A stretch of DNA of 64,000 nucleotides from Candidatus Hydrogenedentota bacterium. GTDB lineage: Bacteria; Hydrogenedentota; Hydrogenedentia; Hydrogenedentales; SLHB01. The stretch's first letter is position 1. Each line of letters starts with the position of its first letter. Below, one piece after another: positions 5,408 through 54,293 of this stretch. Under the pieces are notes generated by a model. That model was given only the letters and a program-made list of their open reading frames with translations. It did not search any database and was not told the origin of the DNA. The position numbers and the translations under genes were made by a program. The stretch spans positions 512,001 through 576,000 of the forward strand of contig CAXXTH010000017.1 in the NCBI GenBank assembly GCA_963668025.2, written 5' to 3'.

Positions 5408-5567
5408 GTTAGGGTGGGATTTGCCCAAGCGCTCATGGATACGCCTATATAGTCCAGAACTTAACTATTTGATATGAAATGGTTTATCAGGGAAATCCCT
5501 GCAAGAAAACAATGTTTTGCCAGATAGTACGAAAATCTTGTCCATCATGTAAATCATGTCCAAAAAA
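5408..5567. repeat. Composite dispersed repeat: REP-like module A (+, 5408-5476) and 9-mer module B (-, 5534-5567)
   Basis: 5408-5476 aligns with 25081-25149; 5534-5560 is identical (27 nt) to 46686-46712. Confidence 0.85.
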
Positions 5568-5822
5568 GCTACCCCTGTTTGAGGCGGATGGATGGTCATT
5601 TGATGCTACTATCTTCTCCAGAAGTGCGATGATCTTTTCCTGGTTTTCCAGGCTCTTGCGGCTGATGGCCAAGCTTTCATCCACTGTTTGCATGGCTTGT
5701 TGCTGCCGTTGTATCGATTCTTGTTGCATCTGGAGATATTTTCTCTGCCGAGCCGCTGAAAGTATCAAGATTGCGATGCCAACAGTACACATAGTCACAA
5801 CAAAGAGGGTGCGGTAATCCAT
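5487..5822 (-). CDS. Small membrane-anchored coiled-coil protein
   Basis: N-terminal hydrophobic helix (TLFVVTMCTVGIAILILSAA) then Q-rich coiled coil; AAAGGGA RBS; C-terminus reads into repeat module B. Confidence 0.6.
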   Translation of the reverse strand: MDYRTLFVVTMCTVGIAILILSAARQRKYLQMQQESIQRQQQAMQTVDESLAISRKSLENQEKIIALLEKIVASNDHPSASNRGSFFGHDLHDGQDFRTIWQNIVFLQGFP

Positions 5823-5834
5823 TTTTTATCCCTT

Positions 5835-6722
5835 TCAAGTTACTGCCAGATGACTATCCGCTGATTCGCATTCCCACTTGGCGCGTTTCACGTGGCGGGT
5901 GATGGCGAACCGTTGCGGGAACACCTCGATCCGGCTGAATTCCCCGTGCGTGCCCGCTGATGGGCGTTTATATAAAAACGCCCCCGTGGTCAAATGACTG
6001 ATGTTCGGATAAACAGGGTCTTGCATGTAGCTAAAGCGATGGACATGGCCGGCCAAGTAGAGGATGTGTTTGCTGCTGTCTCCTAGTACGGTGCGCAATG
6101 CGTCCGCGCCCGCCAAGCGGCGCGTCCAGGCGCTATGATAGCTGGCGGTGTCATGCAAGGCGGGATAATGGCCGGCAACGAGCACGGCCGGGCCACAATC
6201 TTGCAGCAAGGAGCCAAGCTGTTCAAGAGCCATTTCTTGTATGCGGCCCCGCGAGGTGAGCCAATTGGGGGTTACGGTGGGGATGAACAGCAGCGGCGTG
6301 CCGCCGGGCAGCGTGATGCGCGCGGGCAGCGCCGTCGCAGGTGAAAAGGAACCGAGATACGCCTCGAATCGGTGCCTCCGGCAGGATTCAAAGGTGTATG
6401 CATCATGGTTGCCGGACAGAATGTGGATATCCAGGCCGAGCCCTTGCAACCGTTCGAGAAAGGCGCGCGCCAAGGCGAATTCCTCGTCCGTGGCGGTGCA
6501 GGTGAAGTCGCCGGTAATGAGGATGGTGCGCACGCCCGTGGCCGCCAAGACTTCGGTATATGGTTCCGCCTGCTCCATGAGGATATGCCTACCGCGCCGC
6601 AGCACGGCGTTGAGGTTGCCTAAGAACCGTTTGTTAAGCAGCCGCAAGGGATTCCATACCGCCCGCCAGAAATGGATATCCGTTATATGGAGCGCGGCGT
6701 CTATCAGCAGGGAGTGCTCCAT
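5835..6722 (-). CDS. Calcineurin-like metallophosphoesterase
   Basis: HITDIH, ITGDFT, SGNHD, AGHYP, LAGHVH motifs. Confidence 0.9.
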   Translation of the reverse strand: MEHSLLIDAALHITDIHFWRAVWNPLRLLNKRFLGNLNAVLRRGRHILMEQAEPYTEVLAATGVRTILITGDFTCTATDEEFALARAFLERLQGLGLDIHILSGNHDAYTFESCRRHRFEAYLGSFSPATALPARITLPGGTPLLFIPTVTPNWLTSRGRIQEMALEQLGSLLQDCGPAVLVAGHYPALHDTASYHSAWTRRLAGADALRTVLGDSSKHILYLAGHVHRFSYMQDPVYPNISHLTTGAFLYKRPSAGTHGEFSRIEVFPQRFAITRHVKRAKWECESADSHLAVT

Positions 6723-6725
6723 GGC

Positions 6726-10473: not shown

Positions 10474-10502
10474 TTGCCCGCCAGTAAAAAAATTGCTAAG
10501 AT
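10474..10502 (+). promoter_or_regulatory. Putative sigma70 promoter of GT9 gene
   Basis: TTGCCC-N17-TAAGAT with extended -10 TG, 30 nt before the ATG. Confidence 0.5.
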
Positions 10503-10531
10503 GCTGTTTTTAAACAAGATAAGGTCTTTTG

Positions 10532-12234: not shown

Positions 12235-12331
12235 GCTTCATCTTACTCTTGCCGCTTGCATAAAACCTCGACAATAGGTTTCCCTAATCGCTTAACATGG
12301 AATGCGCAGGCTCACCTTCTTGGGGAAGCCA

Positions 12332-12459
12332 AGTCATTTTCAACGCGTGGAGAACGCAAAGCATCGCAGAGAATCCACTCTTCTCTATTCTCGAATGTGC
12401 GAATAAATTGTTCGAGAGTAATCTTTTCTACTTTGCAGATCTCCGCGTTGAAAATGACT
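12332..12459. repeat. 128-bp inverted-repeat element (module D arms)
   Basis: Perfect 16-bp IR AGTCATTTTCAACGCG (12332-12347 / 12444-12459) extending imperfectly inward, plus inner TATTCTCGAA/TTCGAGAGTA stem; lies between convergent genes. Confidence 0.8.
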
Positions 12460-12559
12460 GTCTATATCGAGTAGTAAAAATATCAAGTATTATAAAACAA
12501 TCTTATCCGGCGATTTTTGAAGTTTCTCTATATCGAGCCCTTGCCAGCCTGATGAATGT

Positions 12560-12940: not shown

Positions 12941-12954
12941 GGCGGCCTCCTTTC

Positions 12955-24920: not shown

Positions 24921-25041
24921 GATAACACGGAACACTTTAGCTATCAGAAGCAAAATAACCGTTGTGGTTTAGTTTTATATTACTATATGCTACCTTTCGC
25001 AAAATATTCGAAGATTTTGGAACGAGCGATAATGCAGACGG

Positions 25042-25301
25042 ACACAGCGCAGCTTTTCCGCAACCAAAGCGGCTGAAATTTGTAGGATGGGGCTGGCCCC
25101 ACCGCTCAAGGAATACGCCTATATAGTCCCGACATAACTATTTGATATGCATAGAACTGAAATCATATCAAATAGTTACGGTATTCATTTTCTCGTGTGC
25201 CGTTGTAGGGGCGCACCGCCCTGATCTGTGGGGCAAGCCCCACCCTACAATTTTTAGTGTATTAAGTGGTTCATGAATTCGGATCTTGTGAATCTTGTCC
25301 A
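25042..25301. repeat. REPIN-like composite: inverted GTAG-type REP pair, inner 15-bp hairpin, flanking modules
   Basis: 25077-25102 vs reverse complement of 25228-25253 (23/26); perfect IR TAACTATTTGATATG 25135-25149 / 25164-25178; module C at 25251-25270; partial module B at 25283-25301. Confidence 0.88.
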
Positions 25302-25389: not shown

Positions 25390-26190
25390 ATGAAAATGAG
25401 ATTTTCTACAAACGAGATGTTGCGTGGCTTCGAGCGCTGCATACTTGGTGCGAAGCAGGCCTGCGTGCGCTCTGATTATGCGCCGCTTATACGAGCGGCG
25501 CTATTTGATGGCGTGGGCTGTGAAGCGTGGAGTCCCGGTGGAGGGCGTGGGGCGTTATCGAGGTTTCCCCTTGGCGATGGCTGGGGTGTCGTGCGCCGGT
25601 ATAAGCGCGGCGGCGCGATGCGCTTGTTATCGCGTGACGCTTATCTATTCGGCAACCGCCCGCTGCACGAATTGGACATCCTCATCCGGCTGCATGCGTC
25701 CGGTTTGTTGGTCCCCGAACCGCTGGGCGCATGCTGGGAACGGCGGAACGGCCTCCTGCGCGGCGCACTGGCCACCCGCTGGGTGGACGCGGGTGATTTG
25801 GCCCATTTTGCCGCAAACCAGCCCGCCGGGACTGTTGAAGCCGCCGCACGCGAAGCCGGGCGCGCCATCCGGCGCTTGCATGATTTGGGCGTATTCCATG
25901 CCGATCTCAACATCCGCAACATCCTGGTGGGCGATGCGGGTGTGTACTTGATCGATTTCGACAAAGCCCGCGCATCGGCAGGTTTATCGCCATTGCAGCG
26001 CGCGCGAAATCTCTTGCGCCTGCGGCGCTCCATCGAAAAGCTGGGAATAGCATCTTCTGTTTTTATGGCTATATGCGGAGGATATGGCGCGGCTGATTTT
26101 CCGCCACTCCTGGAATGGGCATACCGCGCTAAAGGCAGATTAGCGGATACATTATCCCGGCGGAAGACTGTGAAAAACGTAATACTTTAG
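25390..26190 (+). CDS. Kdo/WaaP-family LPS kinase (KdkA-like)
   Basis: GGRG, VRRYKRGG, LHDLGVFHADLNIRNIL, YLIDFDKA, NLLRLRRSIEK; start uncertain (25390 or 25417). Confidence 0.85.
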   Translation: MKMRFSTNEMLRGFERCILGAKQACVRSDYAPLIRAALFDGVGCEAWSPGGGRGALSRFPLGDGWGVVRRYKRGGAMRLLSRDAYLFGNRPLHELDILIRLHASGLLVPEPLGACWERRNGLLRGALATRWVDAGDLAHFAANQPAGTVEAAAREAGRAIRRLHDLGVFHADLNIRNILVGDAGVYLIDFDKARASAGLSPLQRARNLLRLRRSIEKLGIASSVFMAICGGYGAADFPPLLEWAYRAKGRLADTLSRRKTVKNVIL

Positions 26191-26372
26191 CGGACTGAAG
26201 CAAGAGCTGTTTTTTTAGACATGATTTACATGATGAACAAGATTGGACATGCTCGCAAAAGTAATCAAAGGATGTGAAAGCTAATCGATGAAGCGCCCGA
26301 ACGCGTTTTTAGGGCAGCGAAATCACCATCAAAAAAATCTTGTCTCATCTTGTTAAATCATGTCTAAAAAAA
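26178..26372 (+). repeat. ~195-bp MITE-like element with module B terminal arms, copy 1
   Basis: Perfect 19-bp IR 26210-26228 / 26354-26372; whole length aligns with reverse complement of 46559-46752. Confidence 0.88.
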
Positions 26373-26719
26373 ACTAGCCCACCCATTGGGTGATAAAAAC
26401 TTTTCTGCGTTACGCCAAGTGTTCAATAGGCTAATTGTATAGGAACTGGCCTCAACGGTTTAATTTAGGCTTAAAAATCATCCCGATGCTTTTACCTCAG
26501 ATGGCTAAAGTGTTACATTCTTACAAAGATCACCCAGTTCCCTTATCTATTACTGTCACATTTATGCTCCCTAGCGTTAGCGCCTATCGCATCGGACGCT
26601 TACACTCATTGCCCGGCAATTTTTGTTCCCTTTAAAGAACATATGGTTGACGGCGGCTCTTTTTTAGCGGATACTACGCGAAGGTATATCCCTGTGTCGG
26701 GCTGGGAAAAGGTGTCTTC

Positions 26720-39979: not shown

Positions 39980-40008
39980 TTGACAACTTCTGCTCGAGTC
40001 GATATTCT
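39980..40008 (+). promoter_or_regulatory. Sigma70 promoter of aspS
   Basis: TTGACA-N17-TATTCT, 41 nt upstream of ATG 40050. Confidence 0.7.
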
Positions 40009-40049
40009 TGCACCTTCGAAACTGGGCAATCAGGTGGAGCGTTTTCTCT

Positions 40050-41825: not shown

Positions 41826-41846
41826 GAATGGAATAGTTTCTCGAAT

Positions 41847-41890
41847 GCGGCCCCAGGCAGAAAAACGCGCCTGGGGCCGCTCGCGTTTTA
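41847..41890 (+). terminator. Hairpin terminator after aspS
   Basis: 12-bp stem GCGGCCCCAGGC / GCCTGGGGCCGC, weak T-tail. Confidence 0.65.
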
Positions 41891-41930
41891 TTGGATAGAA
41901 AGCAGTTGATCCATGGCAATTGGCCGCACA

Positions 41931-42064
41931 TTTTTAGACATGATTAACAAGATAAACAAGAATTGCATATCAAATGGTTAGTCGGGATATATAGGCGTAT
42001 TCCTTGAACGGTGGGGGAAGCGCCACCCTACAGATTTTAGTGTATTTACTGGCCTTGAAATCCG
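41931..42064. repeat. Composite dispersed repeat: module B (+), REP module A (-), module C (-)
   Basis: TTTTTAGACATGATTAACAAGATAAACAAG; 41965-42032 matches reverse complement of 25081-25150; 42035-42064 resembles 54216-54244. Confidence 0.85.
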
Positions 42065-42096
42065 CCTCGTTGGCTATGCTGTTTCTAGCTCACTTA

Positions 42097-42136
42097 AAGT
42101 AAAAGCGCCGGTTTGGAGATCATCCCAAACCGGCGC
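42097..42136 (-). terminator. Intrinsic terminator of minus-strand gene
   Basis: 12-bp stem GCGCCGGTTTGG / CCAAACCGGCGC followed on the minus strand by TTTTACTT. Confidence 0.75.
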
Positions 42137-42162
42137 ATGGTGTGTGTAGCTGATGGGTATGC

Positions 42163-43983
42163 CTACATCCCGCCAGGAGCAGTAGGCATGCCAGGCATCG
42201 CATTACCGCCGGGCATACCAGGCATTCCAGGCATGCCGGGCATTGTGCCTCCTTGCATGCCGCCCATACCGGGCATACCGGGCATTCCACCAGGCATCGT
42301 GTTGCCTGGCGCAGCGCCTGGCATAGCGCCTGGCGCCGCTGCTTCAGGGGTCGCGCCTGGCGCACCGCCCTGTTCCGCTTGTTCCGCTAAGCGTTTCTGC
42401 TCAATTTCAAAACGCTGTTTTGCACTGCTTACATCTTTTACTTTCTGCGCGGACTGATCAATCAGTTTCTGTTTCTGCTCGCTCTGCGGCACGCTCGAAT
42501 CATTGGGGATCACCGACAGGATGCCGGGCACGCTCTCGAACTTCGTACTCGCTTCTTCAAACGAACGGCGTTCGAGGAGCGCATCGCCATCATCCAGGGC
42601 GTCCTGGGCGTCATCTAATACGTCATTCAAGATATTGTTGATGGCGGCTTGCGCATCGCTTGCGGCCTTTTTGGCGGCGGCTGTTTGTTCGGGGAACATG
42701 TCGTTATTCGCCACATCCTCCGCTTTGCTGATGACTTGGTTGAAGGTGTTGATGGCGATCTCATATTGAGGCGGCGTTTCACCCGCGAGGCGGCCGGCTT
42801 CTTTCATATCACGTTCGATGCTCGCCACCATTTCGATGGTTTGTTTGAGCAGTTCATTACGCTCCCGAAGCTTAATCTGGGCGTCGTTGAGCAAGTCGGA
42901 TGCCTGGCTGTTGCCAGGATCGGATGCGATAGCTTCCCGGAACGCCACGATAGCGTCATCTAGCGCCCGCTCCGGCGGATGGGGGCCTTCCGCCGCATCC
43001 AGCAATTCTTTGCCTTGCTCCACGTAATAGCGCCCGATTTTCTTGATGATGCCCTGGCGGCTTGGCCCGGAGAAGCTTGCCGCATACCGCCACTCCTGCA
43101 CGGCGCGATCTTTCGCGCCCGCCGCAAAGAAGTAGTCGCCTACCTTGTCATAGGCTTCGGTAATGCCAGGATTTACGTGGGTGAGCTGGGCATAGGCCTC
43201 TTGCGCTTCTTCCACGTTATCTTTCACCACCAGGAGATATTGGATATCATCCACGAAATACCAAGTCATGGATTCCCGTGAGGGCGTTTTCCCCTCGGGA
43301 GTTTCGCCTTGGCGCAAAACCGTGTGCCAAGCGTCCGCAACAGCCTGCACGGCTTTCATGAAATAGGGCTGAACGCTTTGCGATAGATAGCCATTATAGC
43401 CTGTGCCGCGCGCATAGTCGCCCGCGACTATCGCTTCGGCGTCTTTGACATAGCTCAGGTCGGAGCGAAGATAATCGGCGGGCGAGCGCATGAAATACAA
43501 CTCGCGGCGCATCGGGGTCGTCTTCAGGTTGGCGATCTGCGCATCAATATCGCCATTAATCTCACGGCGAAGCTGCTCGCCTTTGACGGATTTGTCTAGT
43601 CCGATGCCAAACGGCATATGCAAGTCGGCCACCAGCGCCCCGAGAACGCCCAATCGATACGCAAAATAGCCGCCTATGCCATATTGCCGCGCTTCACGCA
43701 GCAATTGAATCTGATTGAGGATTTCGTTTACGGCGTCAGATTCAGACTGGAAATTCGTTTTGAGCGCCAGCTCATAACCGTCTTGCGCGCCTTTTATCAA
43801 GTCATCATGGAAAATAAAGCGCGTATTTTCGAAATAATCTTGCGAGTAGACTCCGCGTAGTAATTGAAGGGAGGTGTTCATTACGGAGCGTTGGGCCTCG
43901 GGCCCCCAGGCGTTTGCATTGGATGCGATTAGGCCCAAGCCGGCTAACACCCAACACACTCGCCACACTGTTTTCCTCTTCAT
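42163..43983 (-). CDS. Secreted protein: degenerate phospholipase C/P1-nuclease-like N-domain, TPR-like helices, Gly-Met-Pro tail
   Basis: Signal peptide ending ANA-WG; FAYRLGVLGALVADLHMPFG; TPR-like segments; C-terminal (GMP)n. Confidence 0.6.
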   Translation of the reverse strand: MKRKTVWRVCWVLAGLGLIASNANAWGPEAQRSVMNTSLQLLRGVYSQDYFENTRFIFHDDLIKGAQDGYELALKTNFQSESDAVNEILNQIQLLREARQYGIGGYFAYRLGVLGALVADLHMPFGIGLDKSVKGEQLRREINGDIDAQIANLKTTPMRRELYFMRSPADYLRSDLSYVKDAEAIVAGDYARGTGYNGYLSQSVQPYFMKAVQAVADAWHTVLRQGETPEGKTPSRESMTWYFVDDIQYLLVVKDNVEEAQEAYAQLTHVNPGITEAYDKVGDYFFAAGAKDRAVQEWRYAASFSGPSRQGIIKKIGRYYVEQGKELLDAAEGPHPPERALDDAIVAFREAIASDPGNSQASDLLNDAQIKLRERNELLKQTIEMVASIERDMKEAGRLAGETPPQYEIAINTFNQVISKAEDVANNDMFPEQTAAAKKAASDAQAAINNILNDVLDDAQDALDDGDALLERRSFEEASTKFESVPGILSVIPNDSSVPQSEQKQKLIDQSAQKVKDVSSAKQRFEIEQKRLAEQAEQGGAPGATPEAAAPGAMPGAAPGNTMPGGMPGMPGMGGMQGGTMPGMPGMPGMPGGNAMPGMPTAPGGM

Positions 43984-44157
43984 AGCAAACCTCATGTTTC
44001 CGCTGGCCTCGCGTTCACCCATAGCGCACCCGGCGGCGCCTTACCGCACGAAATCGCGAAAATACCCCATTCTTCGCGCGTGAGGGTAAACCCGCCGCAA
44101 ACATGGAAAGCCGGTTCCCCAAGGAGCCATCTCCCACCAGCCATAAACCTAGAAAGG

Positions 44158-44187
44158 ACAATATCATTTGCCCCTGAAAACTGTCAA
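44158..44187 (-). promoter_or_regulatory. Putative sigma70 promoter (minus strand)
   Basis: TTGACA-N18-TATTGT with extended TG, facing the 43983 start. Confidence 0.5.
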
Positions 44188-44293
44188 CTATATCCCCAAA
44201 ATTGATTTACCCCCATTTTGCGCCCCCAATTCCGGCATGCTATTCTTCGGGTAAGCGGGGCGCGTTATAACATGCCCCTGCGAAAACGGGGGC

Positions 44294-45505
44294 ATGATGC
44301 ACACAGTTCTGTACTTCTTGTTTAGCGTGATTGGCGCGTATATCGCGCTATTCGCCGCGTATCTTCTATTGCTTTCCGCCGCTTCGTGGTTTCATCGCAA
44401 ACGCACCCAGCCGGATGCTGCGCCACTCCGCCTCGCCGTGGCCATACCTGCCCACAATGAAGAGAGCGGGATCGCCGCTACCGTTGCCAGTGTGTTGGGC
44501 TGCGCATATCCCGAAGAAAAACGGGCCGTTTTTGTCATCGCGGACAACTGCACGGACGGCACGGCGGACCGGGCGCGTGAATCCGGCGCGGAGGCGGCTG
44601 TCCGCACGGACATCGAGCATCGCGGCAAAGGGCAAGCCATCGAATGGTTCCTGAAAACCTATGGCGGGCAGCTCCGCGCATTTGATGGCATTGTGCTCAC
44701 GGATGCGGATACGGCGCTGGATCCCGCCTTTCTGCAAGAGGCCTCCGGCAGCTTGAGCCATCCGGATGTGGCCATTATGCAAGGGTACGACGGAGTGGGC
44801 AACGCTGGTGAAAACTGGCGCACCGCACTTACGTTCGCGGGTTTCGCTGGTGTCAACCATGTCCGTCCCGCTGGCCAGGAAACCCTCGGCGGCGCGGTTA
44901 CGCTGAAAGGGTGCGGCATGGCGTTCCGCTCTTCCGTGCTGCTCGATATGGGATGGCCCGCCCATGGCGTCGTCGAAGATATGGAACAAGGGCTCGATTT
45001 TTTGTTGTCCGGTGCGCGCGTGTCGTATAACCCAGACGCTGTGGTGCTATCGAGCATGCCCGCACACGCCCGGCAGGCCCATTCCCAGCGCACGCGATGG
45101 GAAGGCGGCCGTATGCAGCTCATGGCGCGCATGGGGCCGCGCCTGGCGTGCGCCTTTCTGCGCGAGCCGCGCTGGCGGTGGCTGGACGCCCTTCTCGAAG
45201 TGGCCACGCCGCCCCTGTCCATGCTGGCCATTGCCCTTGCCGCTTTATTTATATTAGCGCTGCTGGCATGGAATAGCGCCATGCTGCTGGCGGCATGCGT
45301 CCTAACCGCCGCTATTGCCGCGTATGTGGCCACCGGCCTGCTCCAACGCCGCGCTTCCCGCCGCGTATGGGCCGCCCTCGCGCTGGCGCCTTTATTTGTG
45401 CTGGCCAAGCTCCCCGTATACGGCGCGCTTCTCCTCGGGCGGCGGCCCACGCAATGGGTGCGCACCGAGCGCAGCGAAACGGCCCACCGGGATGATGCGT
45501 CATGA
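44294..45505 (+). CDS. Glycosyltransferase family 2 (CESA-like, membrane)
   Basis: IPAHNEE, IADNCTD, GKG, TDAD, VEDME, QRTRW. Confidence 0.9.
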   Translation: MMHTVLYFLFSVIGAYIALFAAYLLLLSAASWFHRKRTQPDAAPLRLAVAIPAHNEESGIAATVASVLGCAYPEEKRAVFVIADNCTDGTADRARESGAEAAVRTDIEHRGKGQAIEWFLKTYGGQLRAFDGIVLTDADTALDPAFLQEASGSLSHPDVAIMQGYDGVGNAGENWRTALTFAGFAGVNHVRPAGQETLGGAVTLKGCGMAFRSSVLLDMGWPAHGVVEDMEQGLDFLLSGARVSYNPDAVVLSSMPAHARQAHSQRTRWEGGRMQLMARMGPRLACAFLREPRWRWLDALLEVATPPLSMLAIALAALFILALLAWNSAMLLAACVLTAAIAAYVATGLLQRRASRRVWAALALAPLFVLAKLPVYGALLLGRRPTQWVRTERSETAHRDDAS

Positions 45506-46491
45506 ACGCCCCAGCCATCGACATCTCTTTCGTGGTCATCGGCTTCAATGAATCCCCCATCCTCGCCGATTGCATCGCTTCCTGCCGCCGCGCCGCGCCG
45601 CGCGGCCTTCAAACGGAAATCCTCTACGCCGATGGCGGCTCGACGGATGGCAGCATCTCCATCGCCCAGCAAGCTGGCGCGGACCGCATCCTGGGCGGCG
45701 ACAAGCGCAGGCGCGCCGCGGAAAATCGCAATCTCGGCCTGCACGCGGCGCAGGGGTGTTATGTGCAATTCGTGGACGGCGATATGCTGCTGGAACCGGA
45801 TTGGCCTGCGGCTGCGGTTGCCGCTCTTGAAGCGCGCCCGGAAACCGCCATCGTCTGCGGCGCACTCCATGAAAGAGGTGCGGGATTATTGTCGCGCGTG
45901 CTCGAGCTGGATTGGATTCCCGAGGAAGGCGATGTCGCCTTTTGCGGCGGGGCGTCCATGGCCCGGCGGGATGTGCTGCTTTCCCTCGGCGGTTTCCCAG
46001 AAGACGTACGCTACGGGGAAGAACCCTTTTTATGCTGGCGCATCCGCAACGAGCTGGGATTATATATTCACAAATTGAACTGTACGATGGCCCAGCATGA
46101 TTTAGGAATACACACCTTTGCCGCATATTGGCGATGGAATGGGCGCAATGGCCGCAGTTACGCGGAGATCGCCGCCCGCTGCCTGCACACGAAGGACCGC
46201 TTATGGCTCAAGCCCTGTATCTCAAACGCAGCCTGGGCGCTCCTGTTGCTCGCATCCGCCCTGATACTGCTCTTTGCCCCCTGGCCCCTGCGCGCGGCCA
46301 TATTCGTGGCATGGATAGCCGTGCTGGCGCGTAAAACGATTCATGCTTACCGGCGCACGGCGTCGCTTGCCACTTCCGCCGCCTATGCCGGACACATCTA
46401 TTTCGTCAAACTAGCATTGGCCTGGGGCCAGCTTTGCTGGATAACAGGCCATTTCGTCGCCAAGAAAAAAGGTAACAATTTAGCCGACTGA
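45502..46491 (+). CDS. Glycosyltransferase family 2
   Basis: VVIGFNE, DGGSTDGS, RNLG, QFVDGD, GEEP..CWR; C-terminal TMs; ATGA overlap. Confidence 0.88.
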   Translation: MNAPAIDISFVVIGFNESPILADCIASCRRAAPRGLQTEILYADGGSTDGSISIAQQAGADRILGGDKRRRAAENRNLGLHAAQGCYVQFVDGDMLLEPDWPAAAVAALEARPETAIVCGALHERGAGLLSRVLELDWIPEEGDVAFCGGASMARRDVLLSLGGFPEDVRYGEEPFLCWRIRNELGLYIHKLNCTMAQHDLGIHTFAAYWRWNGRNGRSYAEIAARCLHTKDRLWLKPCISNAAWALLLLASALILLFAPWPLRAAIFVAWIAVLARKTIHAYRRTASLATSAAYAGHIYFVKLALAWGQLCWITGHFVAKKKGNNLAD

Positions 46492-46558
46492 AGTGAAAGT
46501 ACCGGGACAGTTTTTGAACTGAGAATACATAATAAACCGCCTATAATGGAGGCATTTA

Positions 46559-46752
46559 TTTTTAGACATGATTTACAAGATGGGACAAGATTTTTTTTGA
46601 TGGCAATTTTGCTACACAAAAGAACGCGCCCGGATACTTTCTAGATTAACTTTCAGATTTGCAAATAATCCTGGCGATCTTGTCCAATCTTGTCCATCAT
46701 GTAAATCATGTCAAAAAAAACAGCTCTTTCTTCAGTCGGTTAAAGTATTACG
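46559..46752 (-). repeat. ~195-bp MITE-like element with module B terminal arms, copy 2
   Basis: Perfect 13-bp IR GACATGATTTACA 46565-46577 / 46700-46712; reverse complement aligns end to end with 26178-26372. Confidence 0.88.
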
Positions 46753-46805
46753 AAAAAAGAATAATTGGCTGAGTACGACAACAACGCCAACCAGGAGAAG
46801 CGCGC

Positions 46806-47285
46806 ATGCCATGCCTCATTGACCACGTAAACATCGTCGTATCGAATTTGGAGCGTTCGGTGGACTTTTACACCCGCCTATTGGGTTTTGAGCAGACGCG
46901 CCAGGCCACGCTGGAAGGGGAATGGATCGAGTCCGTCGCGGGGCTCAAGGGAGTCCATGCGGAGGTGGCGTACATCCAGCCGCCGGGCGGCGGCCCACGC
47001 ATCGAACTCATCGAATACCGTTCGCCCGCGGGCGAAGTCCTGCCCGCAAACGCCATGGCCAATACCGTGGGCTTGCGGCATCTGGCTTTCCGGGTCGAGG
47101 ATGCATGGGGGCTGTATGAACGGCTGCGGAGTGAAGGGGTGGCGTTTCTCGCGCCGCCCGTGCGCGTACCGGGGAAAGTCGTGCGGCACGATGAAGGCGA
47201 TAAATCGCTCTGTTATTTCCATGACCCCGACGGCGTGCTGCTCGAACTGGCGCAATATGACGAAAGCGCCCCTCGCCAGGCGTAG
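46806..47285 (+). CDS. VOC/glyoxalase family protein
   Basis: IDHVNIVVSNLERSVDFY..LLG, IELIEY, GLRHLAFRV, YFHDPDG.LLEL. Confidence 0.92.
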   Translation: MPCLIDHVNIVVSNLERSVDFYTRLLGFEQTRQATLEGEWIESVAGLKGVHAEVAYIQPPGGGPRIELIEYRSPAGEVLPANAMANTVGLRHLAFRVEDAWGLYERLRSEGVAFLAPPVRVPGKVVRHDEGDKSLCYFHDPDGVLLELAQYDESAPRQA

Positions 47286-47313
47286 GCCAAACAAGAGGCG
47301 CGGTGTCACCACA

Positions 47314-48372
47314 TCATGGAATAAACGTCATATCCTTCTTGAGGCCCACGAGCCATTCCGCCAGCAGCCGGGCGGCGTTCTCCGCATCCGCGAGGCTGAT
47401 CAATTCCACGGGCGAATGCATATAGCGGTTCGGAATGCTGACCAGCCCGGTGGCCATGCCGCCCCGGCTGAGCTGCATGGCGTTGGCGTCCGTGCCCGTG
47501 CCGCGCGGCGCGGCGGCAATCTGGTGGGGGATCTTCTTTTTGCGGGCGGTCTCGATGAGCTGCTTGCCCACGACGGGATTGATGTTCGCGCCCCGGAAGA
47601 GAATCGGGCCGCCATCAATTTTTCCTTCCCGGAACCGGCGCGCATCGACGGTCGGATAATCCACGGCATGGCCGACATCCACCGCGACGCCCACTTGGGG
47701 GTTGCAACCATATGCGCTCGTGGCGGCCCCGCGAAGCCCGATTTCCTCCTGCACCGTCGTAACCGCATACACCGCGCACTCAATCGTGCGCTCGGCGAGC
47801 AGCCGCAGCGCTTCCAGGATAACGAACGCGCCAATGCGATCATCAAACGCGCGCGCCACGGCCCGGCCGTTTAGCAGTTCCGTGAATCCCGCGTCAATGG
47901 TGATGGGGTCGCCAATGGCCACATGCTTTTCCGCTTCTTTTTTATCTTTCGCGCCGATATCCACCCAAAGCTGGTGAAGCTTGAGCGGCTTGCCGCGTTC
48001 TTCCACTTCCATGAGATGGATGGCCGTACGGCCGATAACGCCCGGCAGGCTGCCTTTCTGGCCATGCACCTCGACGCGCTGGCCATCCAGCACCGATGGG
48101 TCAATGCCGCCGATGGCCACGAATCCAATGAAACCGCGATCATCAATATCATTGATCATGAGTGCAATTTCATCCACGTGCCCCGCGAGCATGACCCGCA
48201 ATTCCGCGCCCGGATTCTTGACATGGTATTGATTGCCATGAACATCTTTATATATTTCATCCGCGAACGGCTTGGCGTACTGGGCGCACACTTCCTGGGC
48301 TTTTTCTTCAAAGCCCGAGGGGCTGGGCGTCGTAACCAATTCCTGTAGAAAACCGAGAGATTGCTTTTTCAT
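47314..48372 (-). CDS. M42-family metallopeptidase (TET/endoglucanase-like)
   Basis: SPSGFE, AGHVDE, AFDDR, VQEEIGLRGA, GTDA, RYMHSP. Confidence 0.93.
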   Translation of the reverse strand: MKKQSLGFLQELVTTPSPSGFEEKAQEVCAQYAKPFADEIYKDVHGNQYHVKNPGAELRVMLAGHVDEIALMINDIDDRGFIGFVAIGGIDPSVLDGQRVEVHGQKGSLPGVIGRTAIHLMEVEERGKPLKLHQLWVDIGAKDKKEAEKHVAIGDPITIDAGFTELLNGRAVARAFDDRIGAFVILEALRLLAERTIECAVYAVTTVQEEIGLRGAATSAYGCNPQVGVAVDVGHAVDYPTVDARRFREGKIDGGPILFRGANINPVVGKQLIETARKKKIPHQIAAAPRGTGTDANAMQLSRGGMATGLVSIPNRYMHSPVELISLADAENAARLLAEWLVGLKKDMTFIP

Positions 48373-48587
48373 ATGCTCTCCTTGCATTGCCGCTTCGTGT
48401 CAGCGGCGCATAATGGCCGAAATTCCGGCCACGCCAGTATCGCTCTGCACGCCTAAATACGTATAATACCGTTTCCACGCGCATAGTCCCAATAGCGCGG
48501 GGCGCCCGGAATCGCAAGCGGTGGATGCAGAAAAATGCAAAGCAAAGTAGATTCCCCGGGCGGTGGGGGATATGATAGCATTGGCGC

Positions 48588-48914
48588 ATGCAAAAGCCGA
48601 AACGCAAACCCGAGCCAGCCGAGATTTGGGCCATATGGCGGGCGAGATTGCATCCCGACCGGGTTGGGGTGCTTGTCGGGTTGTGCATGGCCATGGCTGT
48701 CATGGCGCTGGGATTTTGGCGTGGAACCGGATTTCTGGATGTCTTGTACAGGACCGCATTGGCTTTTGTGGTAAGCTGGCTGGTTACGTTCGCTGCCGTG
48801 TTCGTGGTATACCACATTTCGGACAGGGAACTGGCTCCTCCACCGGAGCCTAGCCAAGAAGCTGAGGATTTGGATAAAACGTCCCCCGAAGGGGGTGCAG
48901 GAGAACAAGAATGA
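48588..48914 (+). CDS. Small two-TM membrane protein, unknown function
   Basis: Two hydrophobic helices; stop overlaps the start of the PPIase gene (ATGA). Confidence 0.55.
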   Translation: MQKPKRKPEPAEIWAIWRARLHPDRVGVLVGLCMAMAVMALGFWRGTGFLDVLYRTALAFVVSWLVTFAAVFVVYHISDRELAPPPEPSQEAEDLDKTSPEGGAGEQE

Positions 48915-50080
48915 AACGAATAGCGGTCATGGCCTGCTGTGGCGGCGTTATGCTGGCGTTGTCTCAGCTTACTGCATGGGGGCAAAGCGCCCCCGCACCG
49001 GCAGCCCAATCCGATATCGTGTTGCGGTGTGTCCCGGATGGCCCCGTCGCCCGGGTGGATCAAGAAGCGATTGCTCCGGATGAATTCCGGGACTTGTATG
49101 TCGCGGAGCTTTTACGCCTACAGCATACGGGCGGGCAATTGGAGGATATCGAACGCATGGAACTGGCCATGCGATGCCTGCGAATGCTCATCGAGCGGAG
49201 CATGCTGTTCCAAAGCGCCCAGCAACAGGGCCTTGCGGTCACGGATGAAGAAGTCGCCACCGCTTGGAAAGAAGAAGTCGAACGCATGAGCAAAGGCCTC
49301 GCGGGCCAAAGCGGCAAGCCGCTCAGTGAAGAAGAAATTCTCAAGCTGGCCAATACAAGCCGCGAAAACGCGCTCAAAGAACTCCGCCGCACCATGCTGA
49401 TTGATAAAATGCGCGGCGTCATTGTGAAAAAAAAGAATGTAACCGCCACGGATGAGGAAGCGAAAAAATACTTTGACGATAATAAACTGAATAACCGCAT
49501 CCCCGATTCCGTGCGCATACAACAAATCTATATCAAAGTGCCTAAAACCGCTGGCGCGCCAAATCCCGCAATCGCCGAAAAGGCCCGGAAAGAAGCTGAC
49601 AACGCGTTGGCGCGGGTGAAATCCGGAGAGAAATTCGAGGCGGTGGCCAAGGCCGTCACCCAAGCCCCCAACAAACAGGGCGCCGAGGAAAATGGGACGC
49701 AAGTCGCCGTGGATGGGCTTCCCGCCGAATTGCGCCAGCCGGTCATGGCGTTAGCGCCTGGCGAAGTCAGCCCGGTAATCACGAGCGAATACGGCTTTCA
49801 TATCGTCAAGATGCTCGAAAAAGTCGCAGGCAAAGAGCCTACCTTCGAGGAAATGTCCGCCGGGATTAAAAAGCTCTTGCTCGCCCAACGAGGCAATGAG
49901 GCCGTACGCGAGTATTGCAGCGAAATGAAAAGCGAAATCACGATTTACATCGATTTTGACCGGGAAATTAAAGCCCGCCCCGACCTGCAAGAAGCCTTGA
50001 AAAAACTTCAAAAAGAAACCGATGAAAGCGCTCCGCAACAACCGGCGGCGGCCCCCAAAAAGCCCGCTTCAAAAAAATGA
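48911..50080 (+). CDS. SurA/PrsA-like peptidyl-prolyl isomerase chaperone
   Basis: Signal peptide, VARVD..AI, SurA-N helices, parvulin region (GEKFEAVAK, GEVSPVITSEYGFHIVK). Confidence 0.85.
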   Translation: MKRIAVMACCGGVMLALSQLTAWGQSAPAPAAQSDIVLRCVPDGPVARVDQEAIAPDEFRDLYVAELLRLQHTGGQLEDIERMELAMRCLRMLIERSMLFQSAQQQGLAVTDEEVATAWKEEVERMSKGLAGQSGKPLSEEEILKLANTSRENALKELRRTMLIDKMRGVIVKKKNVTATDEEAKKYFDDNKLNNRIPDSVRIQQIYIKVPKTAGAPNPAIAEKARKEADNALARVKSGEKFEAVAKAVTQAPNKQGAEENGTQVAVDGLPAELRQPVMALAPGEVSPVITSEYGFHIVKMLEKVAGKEPTFEEMSAGIKKLLLAQRGNEAVREYCSEMKSEITIYIDFDREIKARPDLQEALKKLQKETDESAPQQPAAAPKKPASKK

Positions 50081-50112
50081 TGCGCCAGGGATGCCATAAT
50101 GCTGTTTGATAC

Positions 50113-50148
50113 GAAAGGGGAGGCCTTGAAAAAGGGCTTCCCTTTTTT
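50113..50148 (+). terminator. Intrinsic terminator
   Basis: AAGGGGAGGCC / GGCTTCCCTT stem followed by T-run. Confidence 0.65.
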
Positions 50149-50200
50149 CATTAGGAGTTATGTCGTGCTCGATCATGATATTAGAGCCGAATGCCGCGCA

Positions 50201-52150
50201 ATGCCGTATAAGCGCTATGTTTTATTTTTTTGCATGGGCATACTATGCGCCATGGGAGCATTCGCCGAAGAAGCATTCGCCTGGCCGCTCGAGTTGCCGC
50301 GCGCGCTCACATCGAGCTTCGCCGAATACCGGACAGGCCGGTTCCATGCGGGCGTGGATTTGCGCACCGGGGGCATCGGCCAGCCCGTACATGCATGTAA
50401 AAACGGTTACGTATCGAGGGTGCGTTGCAGCCCTTATGGGTATGGTAAAGCCGTCTATCTCACCCTCGAAGATGGCCGCACGGTGGTGTACGCCCATCTT
50501 AATGATTACGCCCCCGCCTTGCGCGAATATGTGCGGAATGAACAGCATGCCCGCGAGACCTATACCGTGGATCTAGCTCCAACGCCGGGGCAGTTTGCCA
50601 TCCAGTGCGGCGAGGTCATCGCATATAGCGGCGACACCGGGATAGGCGCGCCGCATTTGCATTACGAGTTCCGGGAACCAGATGAACGTCCCGTGAATCC
50701 GCGTCTTTTGGATATTGCCTGGCCAGACGCCACCCCTCCAGTGGTGCGTACTATTCTTATCACCCCCATGGACCCCAGCGCGCGCATTAATGGAGACATG
50801 CAGCCGGTTATGCTCTCCGCCCATCCTCAAGGCAATGGGCGTTTTTTATGCGACGCTGTACATGCGCGCGGGCGGCTCGGTTTCGGAGCCGATATCATTG
50901 ATCCCGCCAATGGGGGCGATAATATCTTGGGCGTCTACAAACTAACGGCGGCGGCTGGCGCCGCCGAATTGTTCCGTGTTCAAAATGATTACTTGTCGTA
51001 TGACACGATACGCCACGGAGCGGTCTCCTGGCATCCGTACCTGCTGGCGCAAGGCATGTTCCTGCTGCTCTGGCGCTGGCCGGGCAACACCGCGCCCAGC
51101 TACAGCTTCTCGAGCGGCGACGGCATCTTTGATATGGGTGATGCGACCACGACGGTTACGCTGCAAGCGGAAGACTTCTCGGGCAATTCGGTCTCTATTG
51201 AGATTCCTCTAGAACCTGGCGGCCCCGGGCAATCGCCGATTCTCGATACCGCCATACCGCCGGAGAATACGCCGGGCGCGGTGGAGCTTTCCTGCTTCGG
51301 CACATGGGCCTGCATCACGGCGTCCTTCCCGCATGCGGAGCCACGGCCCCCCGTGATGCAAATAGAAGGCCCAGCGGCCAGCACGGGAGGCCGCTTTGTC
51401 CGAATTAATGACCGTACATTCCGGGCGGCCTATGACCCTTCCACAACCGGCATGGCCGCCTTGCACATCCAACATCCACGGCTGCAGGAACAGTCCTTCC
51501 GGGCCGCCGTTTTCCAGCGCGGGCAGGGAGGCCCGGCGCAGTGGGGAGATGCGGGCGTCGAAGCCGGCGCCAATGCCGCCTATGGGACACTCTTCATCTT
51601 GGAAGAAGATAAGCCCGCCGAATCCCCCGAAGCCTTGCGCATGCTGGGGCATCCCTATCGCTTCTGGCCGGACGCCGCTCCAATTGATGAGCCCATCACG
51701 ATCACCCTGCCGCTTCCCGAAGGCATTAGCGACCCATCAACGCTCGCCATCTATCGCAAAACGAACAAGGGCTGGGCCATGAAAGACACGACACGCAAGG
51801 ATGGCGCGCTGTGCGCACGCACCAATGAACTAGGTGTTTTCGCGGTGTTGGCGGACGAACAGCCCCCCCTCATCGACCAAGTGCAGCCGGGTGATGGCTG
51901 CTCCACGGCGAAGCGCCCCACGATTCGGGCGAGTATCGCGGATGGCGGAAGCGGCGTGGAAGCGTTCGAGATACGCGCCAATGGCCAATGGCTGTTAGCG
52001 GAATATGATCCAGAAGAAAACCGGCTCGAATGGGCGCGTGATGAAGACCTGCCCAGCGGCAATGTCTGTATCGAATTCCGCGTGACGGATAACGCAGGAA
52101 ACACCGCCACCGCCATGCGGAACATCCATGCCGGCGAAGCAAGCAAGTAG
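50201..52150 (+). CDS. M23-family peptidase with C-terminal Ig-like extension
   Basis: Signal peptide, FAEYR.GRFHAGVDL, YGKA, YAHL, SGDTG..APHLHYE. Confidence 0.88.
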   Translation: MPYKRYVLFFCMGILCAMGAFAEEAFAWPLELPRALTSSFAEYRTGRFHAGVDLRTGGIGQPVHACKNGYVSRVRCSPYGYGKAVYLTLEDGRTVVYAHLNDYAPALREYVRNEQHARETYTVDLAPTPGQFAIQCGEVIAYSGDTGIGAPHLHYEFREPDERPVNPRLLDIAWPDATPPVVRTILITPMDPSARINGDMQPVMLSAHPQGNGRFLCDAVHARGRLGFGADIIDPANGGDNILGVYKLTAAAGAAELFRVQNDYLSYDTIRHGAVSWHPYLLAQGMFLLLWRWPGNTAPSYSFSSGDGIFDMGDATTTVTLQAEDFSGNSVSIEIPLEPGGPGQSPILDTAIPPENTPGAVELSCFGTWACITASFPHAEPRPPVMQIEGPAASTGGRFVRINDRTFRAAYDPSTTGMAALHIQHPRLQEQSFRAAVFQRGQGGPAQWGDAGVEAGANAAYGTLFILEEDKPAESPEALRMLGHPYRFWPDAAPIDEPITITLPLPEGISDPSTLAIYRKTNKGWAMKDTTRKDGALCARTNELGVFAVLADEQPPLIDQVQPGDGCSTAKRPTIRASIADGGSGVEAFEIRANGQWLLAEYDPEENRLEWARDEDLPSGNVCIEFRVTDNAGNTATAMRNIHAGEASK

Positions 52151-52265
52151 GGTGCGCTTGCCCCCACTGCTCAAGGCCATTCGTTCGACAAGCAGAAAAG
52201 CCTCGACATAACCCGTCATGACGATTGCCTTTTTCCCACCACGAAGAACCGAAGAACACGAAAGG
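52147..52265 (+). repeat. Left arm of island: REP module A (52147-52176) and 9-mer module C (52231-52265)
   Basis: GTAGGGTGCGCTTGCCCCCACTGCTCAAGG matches 25082-25111 at 24/30; ACCACGAAGAACCGAAGAACACGAAAG. Confidence 0.75.
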
Positions 52266-52458
52266 ATTGGGAAGGATTCCGTGAGTGATGGTATATATCA
52301 GATAATCTTCCGTAAATACGAAAAATGAAATAAATGAAAAAGGATTGTTTTTTTACACCTATTGTGCTAATTTGCATACTAGTAGTTGTATCCCGCAGAT
52401 TATTGATTGGTAATCGGACGCCGGATTCCTTGTTATATACATGGGGATAAACAATCAA

Positions 52459-53481
52459 ATGGACACGACTGTAGTAGAAACACTAAAAGACATAAAGGGA
52501 AAACTAAAAAATCATGCCTATTATAATGAGGAACATACACGAATTAACGTAGTATTACGGCTATTAATGGATCTTGGTTGGAACATATGGGATCCATCTT
52601 TCGTATATCTAGAATATCCTGTCGCAAGAGAAGAGGAGTCAACAAAAGTAGATATTGCTCTATTTATTAACAAGCGCACAGCCATGTTCATCGAGGTAAA
52701 AGCACACAAAAAACTCGTGACCGATATAACCAATGTCGAAAGACAACTCAGAAATTATAACCGAGATAATACAGCGGAAATAACAATCGCAACAGATGGA
52801 CAAAATTGGCGTCTATATTATTCTCAAACAGACGGAAAGTTTGCAGACAAATTATTCCATGAACTTGACCTTCTGAAAGATAAAGAGGACGATATCCATC
52901 TTTGGTTGGATTCCTTTTTGTCATTTGAAGAAATACGTAGTGGAAACGCACTAAAAACGGCCAAAGAATTTCTTGAACGAGAAAGACGGCAGAAGTATTT
53001 GCAGGATTGCTTCCCTGACGCCAAGGAACTCACAATTACAGATCCCAGGCTAAGCGTGTTCCATGCGATGTGCCAGAAATTGAAAGAACGTAATGTTGAG
53101 ATTCCGGAAGATGAAATCATTGAATTCTTAAAAAGCCCCCAAATCAAGCCAGTGTCCTCTGAGGAATTGCGAGTTACAGATGATACTGTTCATGATACAA
53201 GCGTTTCCTCTGTTAGCGCTGGTCACACGAAGACTCATTATGACTGTTCTTTGCCTCCCGACGGCACAAAATGCAAAATTGAGATGAAGGGCAAATCGTA
53301 CACCGGAGTCGTCGTCAATAATAAGAAAATCAAAATTGATGGACAATCCGATCAATATTCATTAAGTGGGGCATCAGAAAAGCTTTACGGTGGACCACAT
53401 AATGGATGGAGAGAATGGGAGTTTTTCATAAACGGTAAATGGATCCTAGCAGAGTCATGGCGAGAAAATCGCAAAAGATAA
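52459..53481 (+). CDS. HsdR_N-like PD-(D/E)xK nuclease with C-terminal RAMA/DUF4357-like domain
   Basis: NEEHTR...LL.DLGW...EY....VDIAL.....FIEVK, IATDG..WRLY; C-terminal SLSGAS..LYGG.HNGWREW; very AT-rich; alternative start 52441. Confidence 0.72.
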   Translation: MDTTVVETLKDIKGKLKNHAYYNEEHTRINVVLRLLMDLGWNIWDPSFVYLEYPVAREEESTKVDIALFINKRTAMFIEVKAHKKLVTDITNVERQLRNYNRDNTAEITIATDGQNWRLYYSQTDGKFADKLFHELDLLKDKEDDIHLWLDSFLSFEEIRSGNALKTAKEFLERERRQKYLQDCFPDAKELTITDPRLSVFHAMCQKLKERNVEIPEDEIIEFLKSPQIKPVSSEELRVTDDTVHDTSVSSVSAGHTKTHYDCSLPPDGTKCKIEMKGKSYTGVVVNNKKIKIDGQSDQYSLSGASEKLYGGPHNGWREWEFFINGKWILAESWRENRKR

Positions 53482-53604
53482 TAAAATATTTATAACATAT
53501 ATATAATGCACATATTTTATTAGTCATTTTGACTCTGAATTACTTAGGTTGAATTTTGGAGAAGTCCTCGATTCTTCTTGCAGAGCACATGAAAGGAATG
53601 ACAA

Positions 53605-54178
53605 ATGTCATGTGAGCCACTAATCTCTGCAATTATTGGCGGTGGACTTGCGGGATTATTCACATTTGGAGGTGTCCGGTTAGCTGAGAAATATAATAGA
53701 AACAGAAAGGCCGAAGACGAAAAAAGGGTAATCGCGGGGCTATTGCATTCCCTTCATGATGAAATTGAAGCAGTTAATTTGCAGTATAGAGAAAGAATGG
53801 GAAAACAGATTGAAGCACTTAAAAAGGGAGAGCCTCTTTTGAGTTTTTTTCCCCGTAGGACAAGATTATTTCACAGTGTTTAATTCAAATGCGTCTCTTA
53901 TTGGGCATATCAACGACAATGAGCTACGTAAACAACTCGTGAAAACATATACTCTAGCAAAAGGATTAATTGACACTTATAGCATGAATAACGAACTAGT
54001 CCTAAAGTATGAGCAGTGGAACTTTATGGCAAGAACCTCTCAAGATCCTACACACACATTATTTGTACAAATTCTACATGATCAGCTTATCAACTATGCT
54101 CTGGCAATAAAAGATTCTCACCAGATTACTCAGATTGCTGTAGATAGCTTACTCAAGAAGTTGAAAGAGCACTTGTGA
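53605..54178 (+). pseudogene. Hypothetical N-terminal TM protein split by a 1-nt indel
   Basis: ORFs 53605-53883 and 53876-54178 join (LSFFPVGQDYFTVFNSNA) if one base of the T7-C4 run (53844-53854) is removed. Confidence 0.65.
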
Positions 54179-54293
54179 GCGGTGGGGCAAGCCCCACCCA
54201 CAAAATTTACGTGTATTTCGTGTATTTAGTGGTCTCGAAATCCGGCTTTTGGGGGTGCGGCTAAGCAACGCCATGTACTTCGTGGTGAAAATT
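54176..54293 (-). repeat. Right arm of island: REP module A (-), module C (-) twice
   Basis: Perfect stem GGTGGGGC-AA-GCCCCACC 54181-54198; TTTACGTGTATTTCGTGTATTTAGTGGT 54206-54233; GTACTTCGTGGTGAAAA 54275-54291. Confidence 0.82.

Follow-up and report, generated by a model that had tools for sequence, protein, structure and literature searches.

What do seven intergenic places in one stretch of bacterial DNA have in common, when each of them holds the same few short repeats in a different combination? The stretch, hereafter the window, comprises 64,000 nucleotides of the genome of a Candidatus Hydrogenedentota bacterium (contig C17:512001-576000), and the original prediction had described in it one modular system of inverted arms: a palindrome with a GTAG tag (module A) and three kinds of tandem words with a period of about 9 nt (modules B, C and D), paired differently at each locus. 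The recurrence itself was confirmed, as all seven loci hold the modules at the predicted coordinates. The single system was not, and the seven loci are probably a mosaic of elements with at least three unrelated origins, namely a miniature inverted-repeat transposable element (MITE) of the insertion sequence (IS) family IS66, nonamer foldbacks linked to genes for GxxExxY proteins, and a GTAG repetitive extragenic palindrome (REP) that is mostly part of an element here called ACE, all of them inserted into or beside one another and decayed.

The genome amounts to 6.15 Mb in 24 contigs (C-numbers below) with about 55% GC, in an assembly that is 93.75% complete, and 83% of it is coding according to our own simple gene caller, from which all gene calls given here are taken. 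ACE, E, X and F are working names coined in the present analysis, and three profile hidden Markov models (HMMs), for ACE, the MITE (em.hmm) and D, were run with nhmmer to parse both window and genome. The relatives compared are of other genera only, with no same-genus genome among them. Within the window, the B arm has 5 matches with up to three mismatches and REP A has 4, against 0.00 expected for each (100 shuffles in the case of B). The whole genome contains 106 B arms (none for a scrambled control), 124 C arms by motif scan, and 197 strand-hits of REP A on 155 sites at up to four mismatches, the 42 'two-strand' sites being mostly an artefact of allowing four mismatches on a palindrome. Module D, whose typed consensus matched only once and which was therefore studied by its HMM, gave 41 matches. 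The genome is also rich in ISs, with 188 repeat intervals longer than 600 bp in a self-BLAST and long repeats that group into more than 20 families, several with 10-80 members.

The most abundant carrier of module B turned out to be a transposable element in its own right. In an alignment of 33 copies with both B arms, homology extends past the arms on both sides, up to outer limits that consist of an inverted repeat of about 22 nt beginning GTAA. This terminal inverted repeat is a further module, E, absent from the earlier description, and the E/B composite that it bounds is non-coding and 280-340 bp in size. The copy at 46472..46751 of the window (plus strand, 280 bp, em.hmm 3-285) is 99% identical to C17:855526-855811; the identity ends exactly at the E ends, and the two copies have different flanks, each with its own perfect 8-bp duplication (46464-46471 / 46752-46759 in the window). 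Nine of the 19 full copies show perfect 8-bp duplications and five more show duplications with one mismatch, several of these counts having been read by eye from the flanking sequence, and such duplications prove the transposition of the composite. The nearest pairs of copies are up to 99.6% identical.

The E motifs of the genome form pairs of two kinds, one with a spacing of about 255-290 bp, which are the MITEs, and one, represented by 12 pairs, with a spacing of about 1518 bp; it was the latter spacing that led to the autonomous partner. The long pairs bound a 1.54-kb element with the same ends as the MITE and one open reading frame (ORF) of 488 amino acids; 13 copies were listed, 9 of them with perfect 8-bp duplications, and one example is located at C10:84658-86209. 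PF03050 (DDE_Tnp_IS66) has 14 matches in the genome, with up to 147.2 bits, all of them in copies of this IS. According to a reading of the flanks, the duplicated targets of both MITE and IS are mostly A/T-rich. Ends that start with GTAA and 8-bp duplications are features of the IS66 family, whose single-ORF elements form the 'ISBst12' group. When the three elements were compared by BLAST with a single representative of each IS family, nothing matched, because single-linkage clustering had placed the IS66 element in a mixed family. The E/B composite is a MITE whose ends reproduce one end of the 1.54-kb single-ORF IS66-family element; it is probably moved in trans by the DDE transposase of the latter, with generation of 8-bp target duplications, and is probably still active. 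As partners or as REP-targeting elements, two further ISs were considered and rejected, namely ISKra4, with 21 copies, and another one with 11; their flanks vary between copies.

Since 105 of the 106 B arms fall within matches to the MITE model, the copy number of module B in this genome is owed mostly to the MITE, and a single B foldback captured inside an IS66 MITE would have sufficed for most B foldbacks to spread passively. Some MITE copies also carry a second 9-mer array, and the copy at 46472-46751 folds as a nested foldback (z = -6.35). The consensus MITE end carries TAA, TAG and TGA, one per frame, which explains why two genes of the window end inside a MITE: the terminal repeat of the copy at 26179..26516 (minus strand, a full E-F-B-loop-B'-E' element, em.hmm 3-284, E 4e-58) supplies the TAG stop of a Kdo-kinase-like gene (25390-26190, Pfam Kdo), and a glycosyltransferase gene (45502-46491) takes its final six codons, together with its TGA stop, from that of the copy at 46472-46751. 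No target duplication was recognisable in the flanks of 26179-26516. The overlap with stop codons noticed earlier is therefore real at 26188-26190 and 46489-46491, as it is at 52148-52150. At these two MITE loci, first delimited as 26178-26372 and 46559-46752, the modules were rightly identified and their extent was not, both intervals being inner parts of the larger elements. Contigs from four DNA runs over 40000-56000, inspected for empty sites, break at the repeats, and their joints are cross-repeat artefacts; the start of one contig, from a strain with roughly 96% identity, falls at 46730, within the right end of the MITE, which hints that this insertion is common to that strain.

Modules B, C and D are three families of words with one design: a T-run, about three units of some 9 nt (about 9-10 nt in D), spaced by one turn of the helix, a loop, a mirror arm and an A-run. 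The link between such foldbacks and GxxExxY genes, proposed in the original prediction, does exist in this genome, where B-type foldbacks stand on both sides of the genes at C23:139531 and C17:83206, C-type foldbacks on both sides of the gene at C18:314713, and tandem 9-mer foldbacks with other words beside the remaining genes of the same family (PF13366; 15 matches in about 10 genes, one of them 600 bp upstream of the window). The protein of the B-type units (128 amino acids in the unit on C23) scores 138 bits on TIGR04256 ('GxxExxY protein'), and both the G-x-x-E-x-x-Y and the D...ExK residues (D66, E76 and K78 in the C23 protein) are invariant in four out of four paralogues. Each of the four loci examined has one complete hairpin on either side of the gene, the two being direct repeats of each other with a spacing of 528-592 bp and an identity of 78-98% (132 nt at 93% in one pair). 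The proteins of the two B-type units are 88% identical, and the similarity of their DNA is limited to the stretch bounded by the outer T-run and the outer A-run, with nearly identical arms and poorly conserved loops. In the C-type unit the ribosome-binding site that follows the hairpin is also duplicated, so that the next host gene keeps one.

Searches with the protein itself gave less. An AlphaFold2 model built from a four-sequence alignment reached a mean predicted local distance difference test score of 44.9 and was not used for fold search, a sequence search against solved structures returned one spurious match only, and PADLOC gave only weak Cas4-like matches (E about 0.005). A genome-wide motif scan for large inward pairs of B or D arms bounding an autonomous element found none. 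As a separate observation, the single gene of the genome with a PF05635 domain (four-helix-bundle, the protein of rRNA intervening sequences), at C18:379096-379412, is in two pieces in different frames and is flanked on both sides by GGGTCTAGG-type 9-mer arrays in inverted orientation.

Outside this genome the same words recur widely. The B arm was matched in 6 of 30 relatives, where it occurs as short hairpins, and in one of them (G008:C255, near 20130-20200) a four-unit GGGACCTAT-type 9-mer array lies directly beside a B-type arm, which implies that this genus is not alone in having unlike arm words strung together. A degenerate version of the B word, 18 nt long, has matches in at least 118 contigs of a species collection, from many bacterial phyla and Methanoperedens, a count that means little alone because about 100 matches are expected by chance in 596 Gb (own arithmetic). 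Of 80 such loci fetched, 54 have an inverted partner within 330 nt, with about 3 estimated by chance. Relatives of the B-type protein were also examined at 80 metagenome loci, 61 of which have sufficient flanking sequence on either side; direct repeats common to both flanks are present in 26 of the 61 (4 of 61 in the control) and inverted repeats in 33. At least four ACA[GAT]GAT words are found beside all 16 of the closest protein relatives (57-71% identity) and beside only one of the 45 others, which carry other words, so that gene and arm word travel together. A literature search on ACAGGAT-type palindromic intergenic repeats found nothing relevant by title. One survey lists the function of PDDEXK_3 (PF13366) as unknown and reports multiple transfers between divisions (PMC3424549).

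From these data it can be proposed that the full form of a nonamer foldback is a hairpin-gene-hairpin unit carrying a gene for a GxxExxY protein akin to PD-(D/E)xK nucleases, which would recognise its own arm words and mobilise or maintain the unit, whereas the solitary foldbacks would be derivatives without the gene, or what is left once the two hairpins around it have recombined. Taken to its end, this would make foldbacks and GxxExxY genes an undescribed class of selfish cassettes: a nuclease that reads phased words of about 9 nt on its own arms, entry at a resident foldback resulting in the hairpin-gene-hairpin layout, a ribosome-binding site of its own that spares operons, gene loss by hairpin recombination to leave solo foldbacks, spread of the ACAGGAT/ACAAGAT word with its protein clade across phyla and archaea and, in the present genome, additional roles as passengers of IS66 MITEs and partners of GTAG REPs. 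We consider this class a serious possibility, somewhat short of an even chance.

Module A also belongs to a longer element. Alignment of its copies defines ACE, a directional unit of about 200 nt that comprises, in this order, a leader that contains a small hairpin (X), a T-run followed by between one and three C units, the GTAG REP itself (REP A, an 18-nt palindrome with its GTAG tag), which is invariant, a middle part that varies and can be divided into several sub-families, and a conserved 3' block. Its HMM gives 212 matches, of which 40 are full length, distributed over 168 intergenic regions. A C unit is found just upstream in 84 of 197 GTAG sides versus 36 of 2000 random 49-mers, REP A occupies the loop of two out of nine C-type hairpins, and the C arm also occurs without REP A, in the foldbacks flanking a GxxExxY gene. 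According to RNAalifold, the base of the C arm pairs with the 3' block over 6 bp; at least 16 of 18 copies retain this pairing, which includes one compensatory change. The identity to the nearest neighbour has a median of 88% and a maximum of 93.4%, and ACE was not detected in any of 30 relatives. With modest confidence, ACE can be regarded as a C-type foldback whose loop region was colonised by the GTAG REP, a directional composite that would have been amplified in this lineage to about 170 intergenic regions and that now looks inactive.

The mobilisation of module A by a REP-associated tyrosine transposase (RAYT), as had been suggested, is not supported. None of 19 places checked, out of 20 listed matches to Y1_Tnp (PF01797), has a REP A within 779 bp, the distance of the nearest one, and four RAYT-like genes are 16-76 kb away from REP A and carry other hairpins. 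True inward pairs of REP A at 100-700 bp number about 6, most sites being singlets in the directional unit, and the apparent 26-nt 'pairs' are one palindrome counted on both strands. No bias in the orientation of ACE with respect to neighbouring genes was detected (46 co-directional, 35 opposed). Some Y1 genes deserve a remark of their own. In the region C10:987292-987474, a Y1-transposase-like ORF of 260 amino acids contains in-frame, GC-rich, GTAG-tagged palindrome-like insertions, which read as Gly/Pro/Ala-rich stretches, and similar hairpins flank the ORF. The RAYT-like genes at C17:774393-774734 and C10:313783-314124 have their own long inverted hairpin sets, unlike REP A, which may be separate REP families.

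With the families told apart, the unlike pairings of arms can be read as junctions, truncations and nestings of separate elements, and the seven loci would be intergenic landing places where at least three kinds of small non-autonomous elements have accumulated, inserted into or beside one another, and decayed. In the HMM parse, the locus 5410-5589 resolves into an ACE cut at its 5' side by ISKra4, of which the last two-thirds are left (5410..5529, plus strand; degenerate REP A and tail, with X and C parts missing; ace.hmm 90-209, E 9.8e-30), and a MITE fragment with one B arm and a decayed terminal repeat (5517..5589, minus strand; em.hmm 67-137, E 4.5e-9; 81% identical to 46686-46739). The locus 41931-42078 is an ACE cut by a B arm: the single arm (41931..41965, plus strand; em.hmm 216-249; B pattern at 41933-41953) abuts an ACE with X, C, REP A and part of the tail (41933..42078, minus strand; ace.hmm 27-186, E 2.6e-29). 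These two places, described before as single elements with unlike arms (5408-5567 and 41931-42064), are thus each a junction of two different elements. At 25041-25288 two ACE-type elements stand tail to tail, the left half of a REPIN-like doublet (25041..25151, plus strand; partial X, REP A and start of the tail; ace.hmm 15-158; REP at 25082-25103) and an inverted right half (25164..25288, minus strand; C arm, REP A and a tail variant with a second GTAG hairpin; ace.hmm 40-156; REP at 25227-25248); a similar doublet exists at C22:145821-145999. The locus 12300-12470 is a D element, a foldback with a T-run and units of about 9-10 nt in each arm (12300..12470, plus strand; d.hmm 1-171, E 1.6e-53), which flanks conserved among copies suggest to be somewhat longer. 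The loci 26179-26516 and 46472-46751 are the full MITEs described above, and 54176-54281 is an ACE 5' part with X, C arm and REP A (54176..54281, minus strand; ace.hmm 11-115, E 1.1e-20; REP at 54181-54202).

Elsewhere in the genome a D element is visibly split by a MITE (C10:788467-788906), and this nesting, together with the 8-bp target duplications of the E/B composite, bears out the earlier view of the modules as non-autonomous repeats, nested or truncated. Almost all copies are intergenic, with 1 of 82 matches of ACE, 3 of 83 of the MITE and 3 of 41 of D inside called genes. ACE and D share an intergenic region in 8 cases versus 2.0 expected (p = 7e-4), MITE and D in 6 versus 0.9 (p = 2e-4); the suggested co-occurrence of families in one region is thus modestly above chance, although most copies stand alone. 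Little free space, A/T-rich targets at the bases of foldbacks and decay suffice to explain the appearance of 'mix and match'.

Several observations speak against this reconstruction and have to be set beside it. Five of the 19 full MITE copies have no target duplication, none of the contigs from the four DNA runs over 40000-56000 bridges an empty site, and ACE and MITE share an intergenic region in 8 cases versus 4.3 expected (p = 0.06). No terminal inverted repeat, target duplication or candidate enzyme was found among the copies of ACE, whose possible origin from a C-type foldback is drawn from two intermediate copies and one 6-bp pairing. The action of the GxxExxY protein on the arms would be deduced from their association, D-type arms were not found beside any GxxExxY gene of the genome, and just one of the 80 cross-phylum B-word loci has such a gene within 400 nt, so that most foldbacks stand without it. 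Finally, the metagenome loci are related rather than independent, and co-evolution of word and protein is not thereby established.

Could all these repeats nevertheless belong to one dedicated system similar to integron cassettes, with foldbacks and REPs as recombination sites and the seven loci as hot spots of gene gain and loss? The GxxExxY genes between direct whole hairpins at four of four loci are what would be expected if a circle with the gene and one hairpin integrated at a resident hairpin, the duplicated ribosome-binding site of one unit would fit as well, and so would the AT-rich island of the window, which lies between inverted copies of REP A with homology ending right at the REPs. 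However, only the GxxExxY genes themselves have been seen between such hairpins, most copies are solitary, no recombinase is encoded beside the units read (no search was aimed at recombinases), and the element that carries most copies of module B is transposed by a DDE mechanism, duplicating its target. The island, for its part, has no nonamer arms and occurs sporadically elsewhere. Being the only locus with any 'cargo', and showing no sign that the REPs moved it, it does not sustain the notion of cargo hot spots, and an integron-like system seems unlikely.

Another explanation is that the repeats are signals kept by selection in the service of the host, either hairpins for transcript processing or stabilisation, sites for RNase III as in the intervening sequences of rRNA genes, or arrays bound by proteins. 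They do lie at gene ends and between genes, conservation between the two B-type units is much higher in the arms than in the loops, the ACAGGAT word recurs across phyla, the genome encodes an RNase III, and REP and MITE ends provide three genes with stop codons. On the other hand, the 46 versus 35 orientations of ACE show no bias, the T-run before the stem and the A-run after it, on both strands, are the reverse of an intrinsic terminator, and target duplications and 99% identical copies reveal mobility. Moreover, ACE was not detected in any of 30 relatives, and Rfam at gathering thresholds has a single match in the window, a tRNA, and none for the repeats, all of which renders a host function quite improbable. 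There is finally the simplest account of module A, an ordinary population of REPINs (inverted REP doublets) mobilised by RAYT, with the 9-mer arrays as part of the spacer. The GTAG tag and 18-nt palindrome of REP A at some 155 extragenic sites, a few inverted doublets (25082/25227 of the window, 167 bp, and C22:145837-145999, 163 bp) and the presence of RAYT-like Y1 genes are all in its favour. Yet nearly all copies stand singly within the directional ACE unit, the hairpins beside the RAYT-like genes are of other kinds, no REP A lies nearer to any Y1_Tnp place checked than the distance given above, the C arm has an existence apart from REP A in foldbacks around a GxxExxY gene, and copies are at most 93.4% alike, so that this account is very unlikely. 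The mosaic of IS66 MITE, GxxExxY-linked foldbacks and REP-derived ACE is the reading retained here.

The remaining features of the window surround these repeats. The statement that no mobilising enzyme is encoded in it needs correction, as the ORF 4108-5376 encodes a transposase of the ISKra4 family (NF033572, 193.8 bits, below the curated cut-off of 205), even if unrelated to the modules. Its IS (4026..5413, plus strand, interval from self-BLAST) has 21 copies in the genome with 99.7-100% identity and flanks that differ between copies, most of them with 8-bp duplications, which together indicate that it multiplied in a burst not long ago; in the window the insertion lies in the 5' region of a minus-strand ORF (2625-4310), and the sequences on its two sides do not form a duplication. 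This IS stands outside the module system and has removed the 5' part of the adjoining ACE. The AT-rich island (52270..54178, plus strand) has 36-43% GC versus 59-65% in its flanks, and lies between a degenerate REP A and the inverted ACE 5' part, whose homology stops right past the REP, at the island start. This degenerate REP (52147..52168, plus strand), whose GTAG overlaps the TAG stop of gene 50099-52150, was read from the sequence and matches neither the pattern (3 mismatches) nor the HMM, and the array beside it at 52230-52262, formerly assigned to module C, is made of a different 9-mer word with 6 matches in the genome. The island encodes a protein of 346 amino acids (52441-53481) of the HSDR_N-type PD-(D/E)xK group (Pfam HSDR_N, 2.1e-9), with only weak matches (26-31% identity) in 4 of 60 relatives, and a second, split gene, where the overlapping ORFs 53605-53883 and 53876-54178 suggest a frameshift. 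Neither NCBIfam nor PADLOC yielded a match or a convincing family, respectively, for the island proteins.

Other repeats of the window are of a different nature. A solitary E-like hairpin (24931..24970, plus strand), right after the stop of gene 24063-24920, is 73% complementary to 26475-26514 and falls below the HMM threshold, a weak assignment. At 28049-28500 and 33656-34458, inside the large ORFs 26720-30658 and 32744-35932, diverged repeats in direct orientation, 47-53 nt long and 64-77% identical to a reference copy, recur every 372-405 nt and look like repeated protein domains. An in-frame 9-nt tandem repeat of the CCGGGCATA-type (42209-42289) lies inside the minus-strand gene 42163-44022, and its copy number may vary between strains, as contigs from other sequencing runs have loose ends at 42255 and 42288. 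The tRNA gene of the window is at 63757-63828 on the minus strand, and a repeated element of 2006 bp starts about 110 bp further on (63937 onward) and runs off the window.

What looked like one modular system dissolves into parts of known and unknown mechanism. One part is a clean pair of transposase and MITE, an IS66-family enzyme of 488 amino acids with a 280-bp element that makes 8-bp duplications. Another is the presence in a single genome of both autonomous-looking and gene-less nonamer foldbacks linked to GxxExxY (PF13366), where the hairpin-gene-hairpin layout and the arm words that track a protein clade offer concrete hypotheses for the role of a widespread small nuclease. For annotators, the repeats explain stop codons derived from repeat ends, contig breaks and spurious ORFs.

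Among systems already known, free-standing homing-endonuclease genes and integron cassettes, cited here as analogies of mechanism only, likewise combine a small nuclease gene with recognition-like repeats, and hairpin-gene-hairpin is reminiscent of attC-gene-attC, whereas no intron, intein or integron integrase context was noticed beside the present units (no search was aimed at it). The bacterial interspersed mosaic elements of Escherichia coli and the BOX elements of pneumococci are similar in using a few short motifs in varied combinations and orientations at gene ends; the combinations described here differ in being traceable to separate elements of separate origins and ages, and no linker motif of the IHF type was noticed. 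Compared with the REP/REPIN and RAYT systems (PMC3116915, PMC3337134, PMC3733652), module A has the tag with its palindrome, the copy number, the extragenic location and occasional inverted doublets, whereas its usual form is a singlet in a longer directional unit with a nonamer arm rather than an inverted doublet, and REP A bounds none of the RAYT-like or other Y1 genes at the 19 places checked. The intervening sequences of 23S rRNA with an S23p ORF (PMC4990558) share with the GxxExxY units a small ORF enclosed by complementary flanks able to form a long stem; their place is a helix of the 23S rRNA, from which RNase III removes them, whereas all the copies read here lie between protein genes, encode a PD-(D/E)xK protein when they encode any, and have whole hairpins as direct repeats. 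The closest likeness is that of the E/B composite to IS66-derived MITEs, short and non-coding elements with terminal inverted repeats copied from a resident DDE_Tnp_IS66 IS, 8-bp duplications and some near-identical copies, from which it is set apart by the inner ACAWGAT nonamer foldback that it carries, spreading a second repeat as a passenger.

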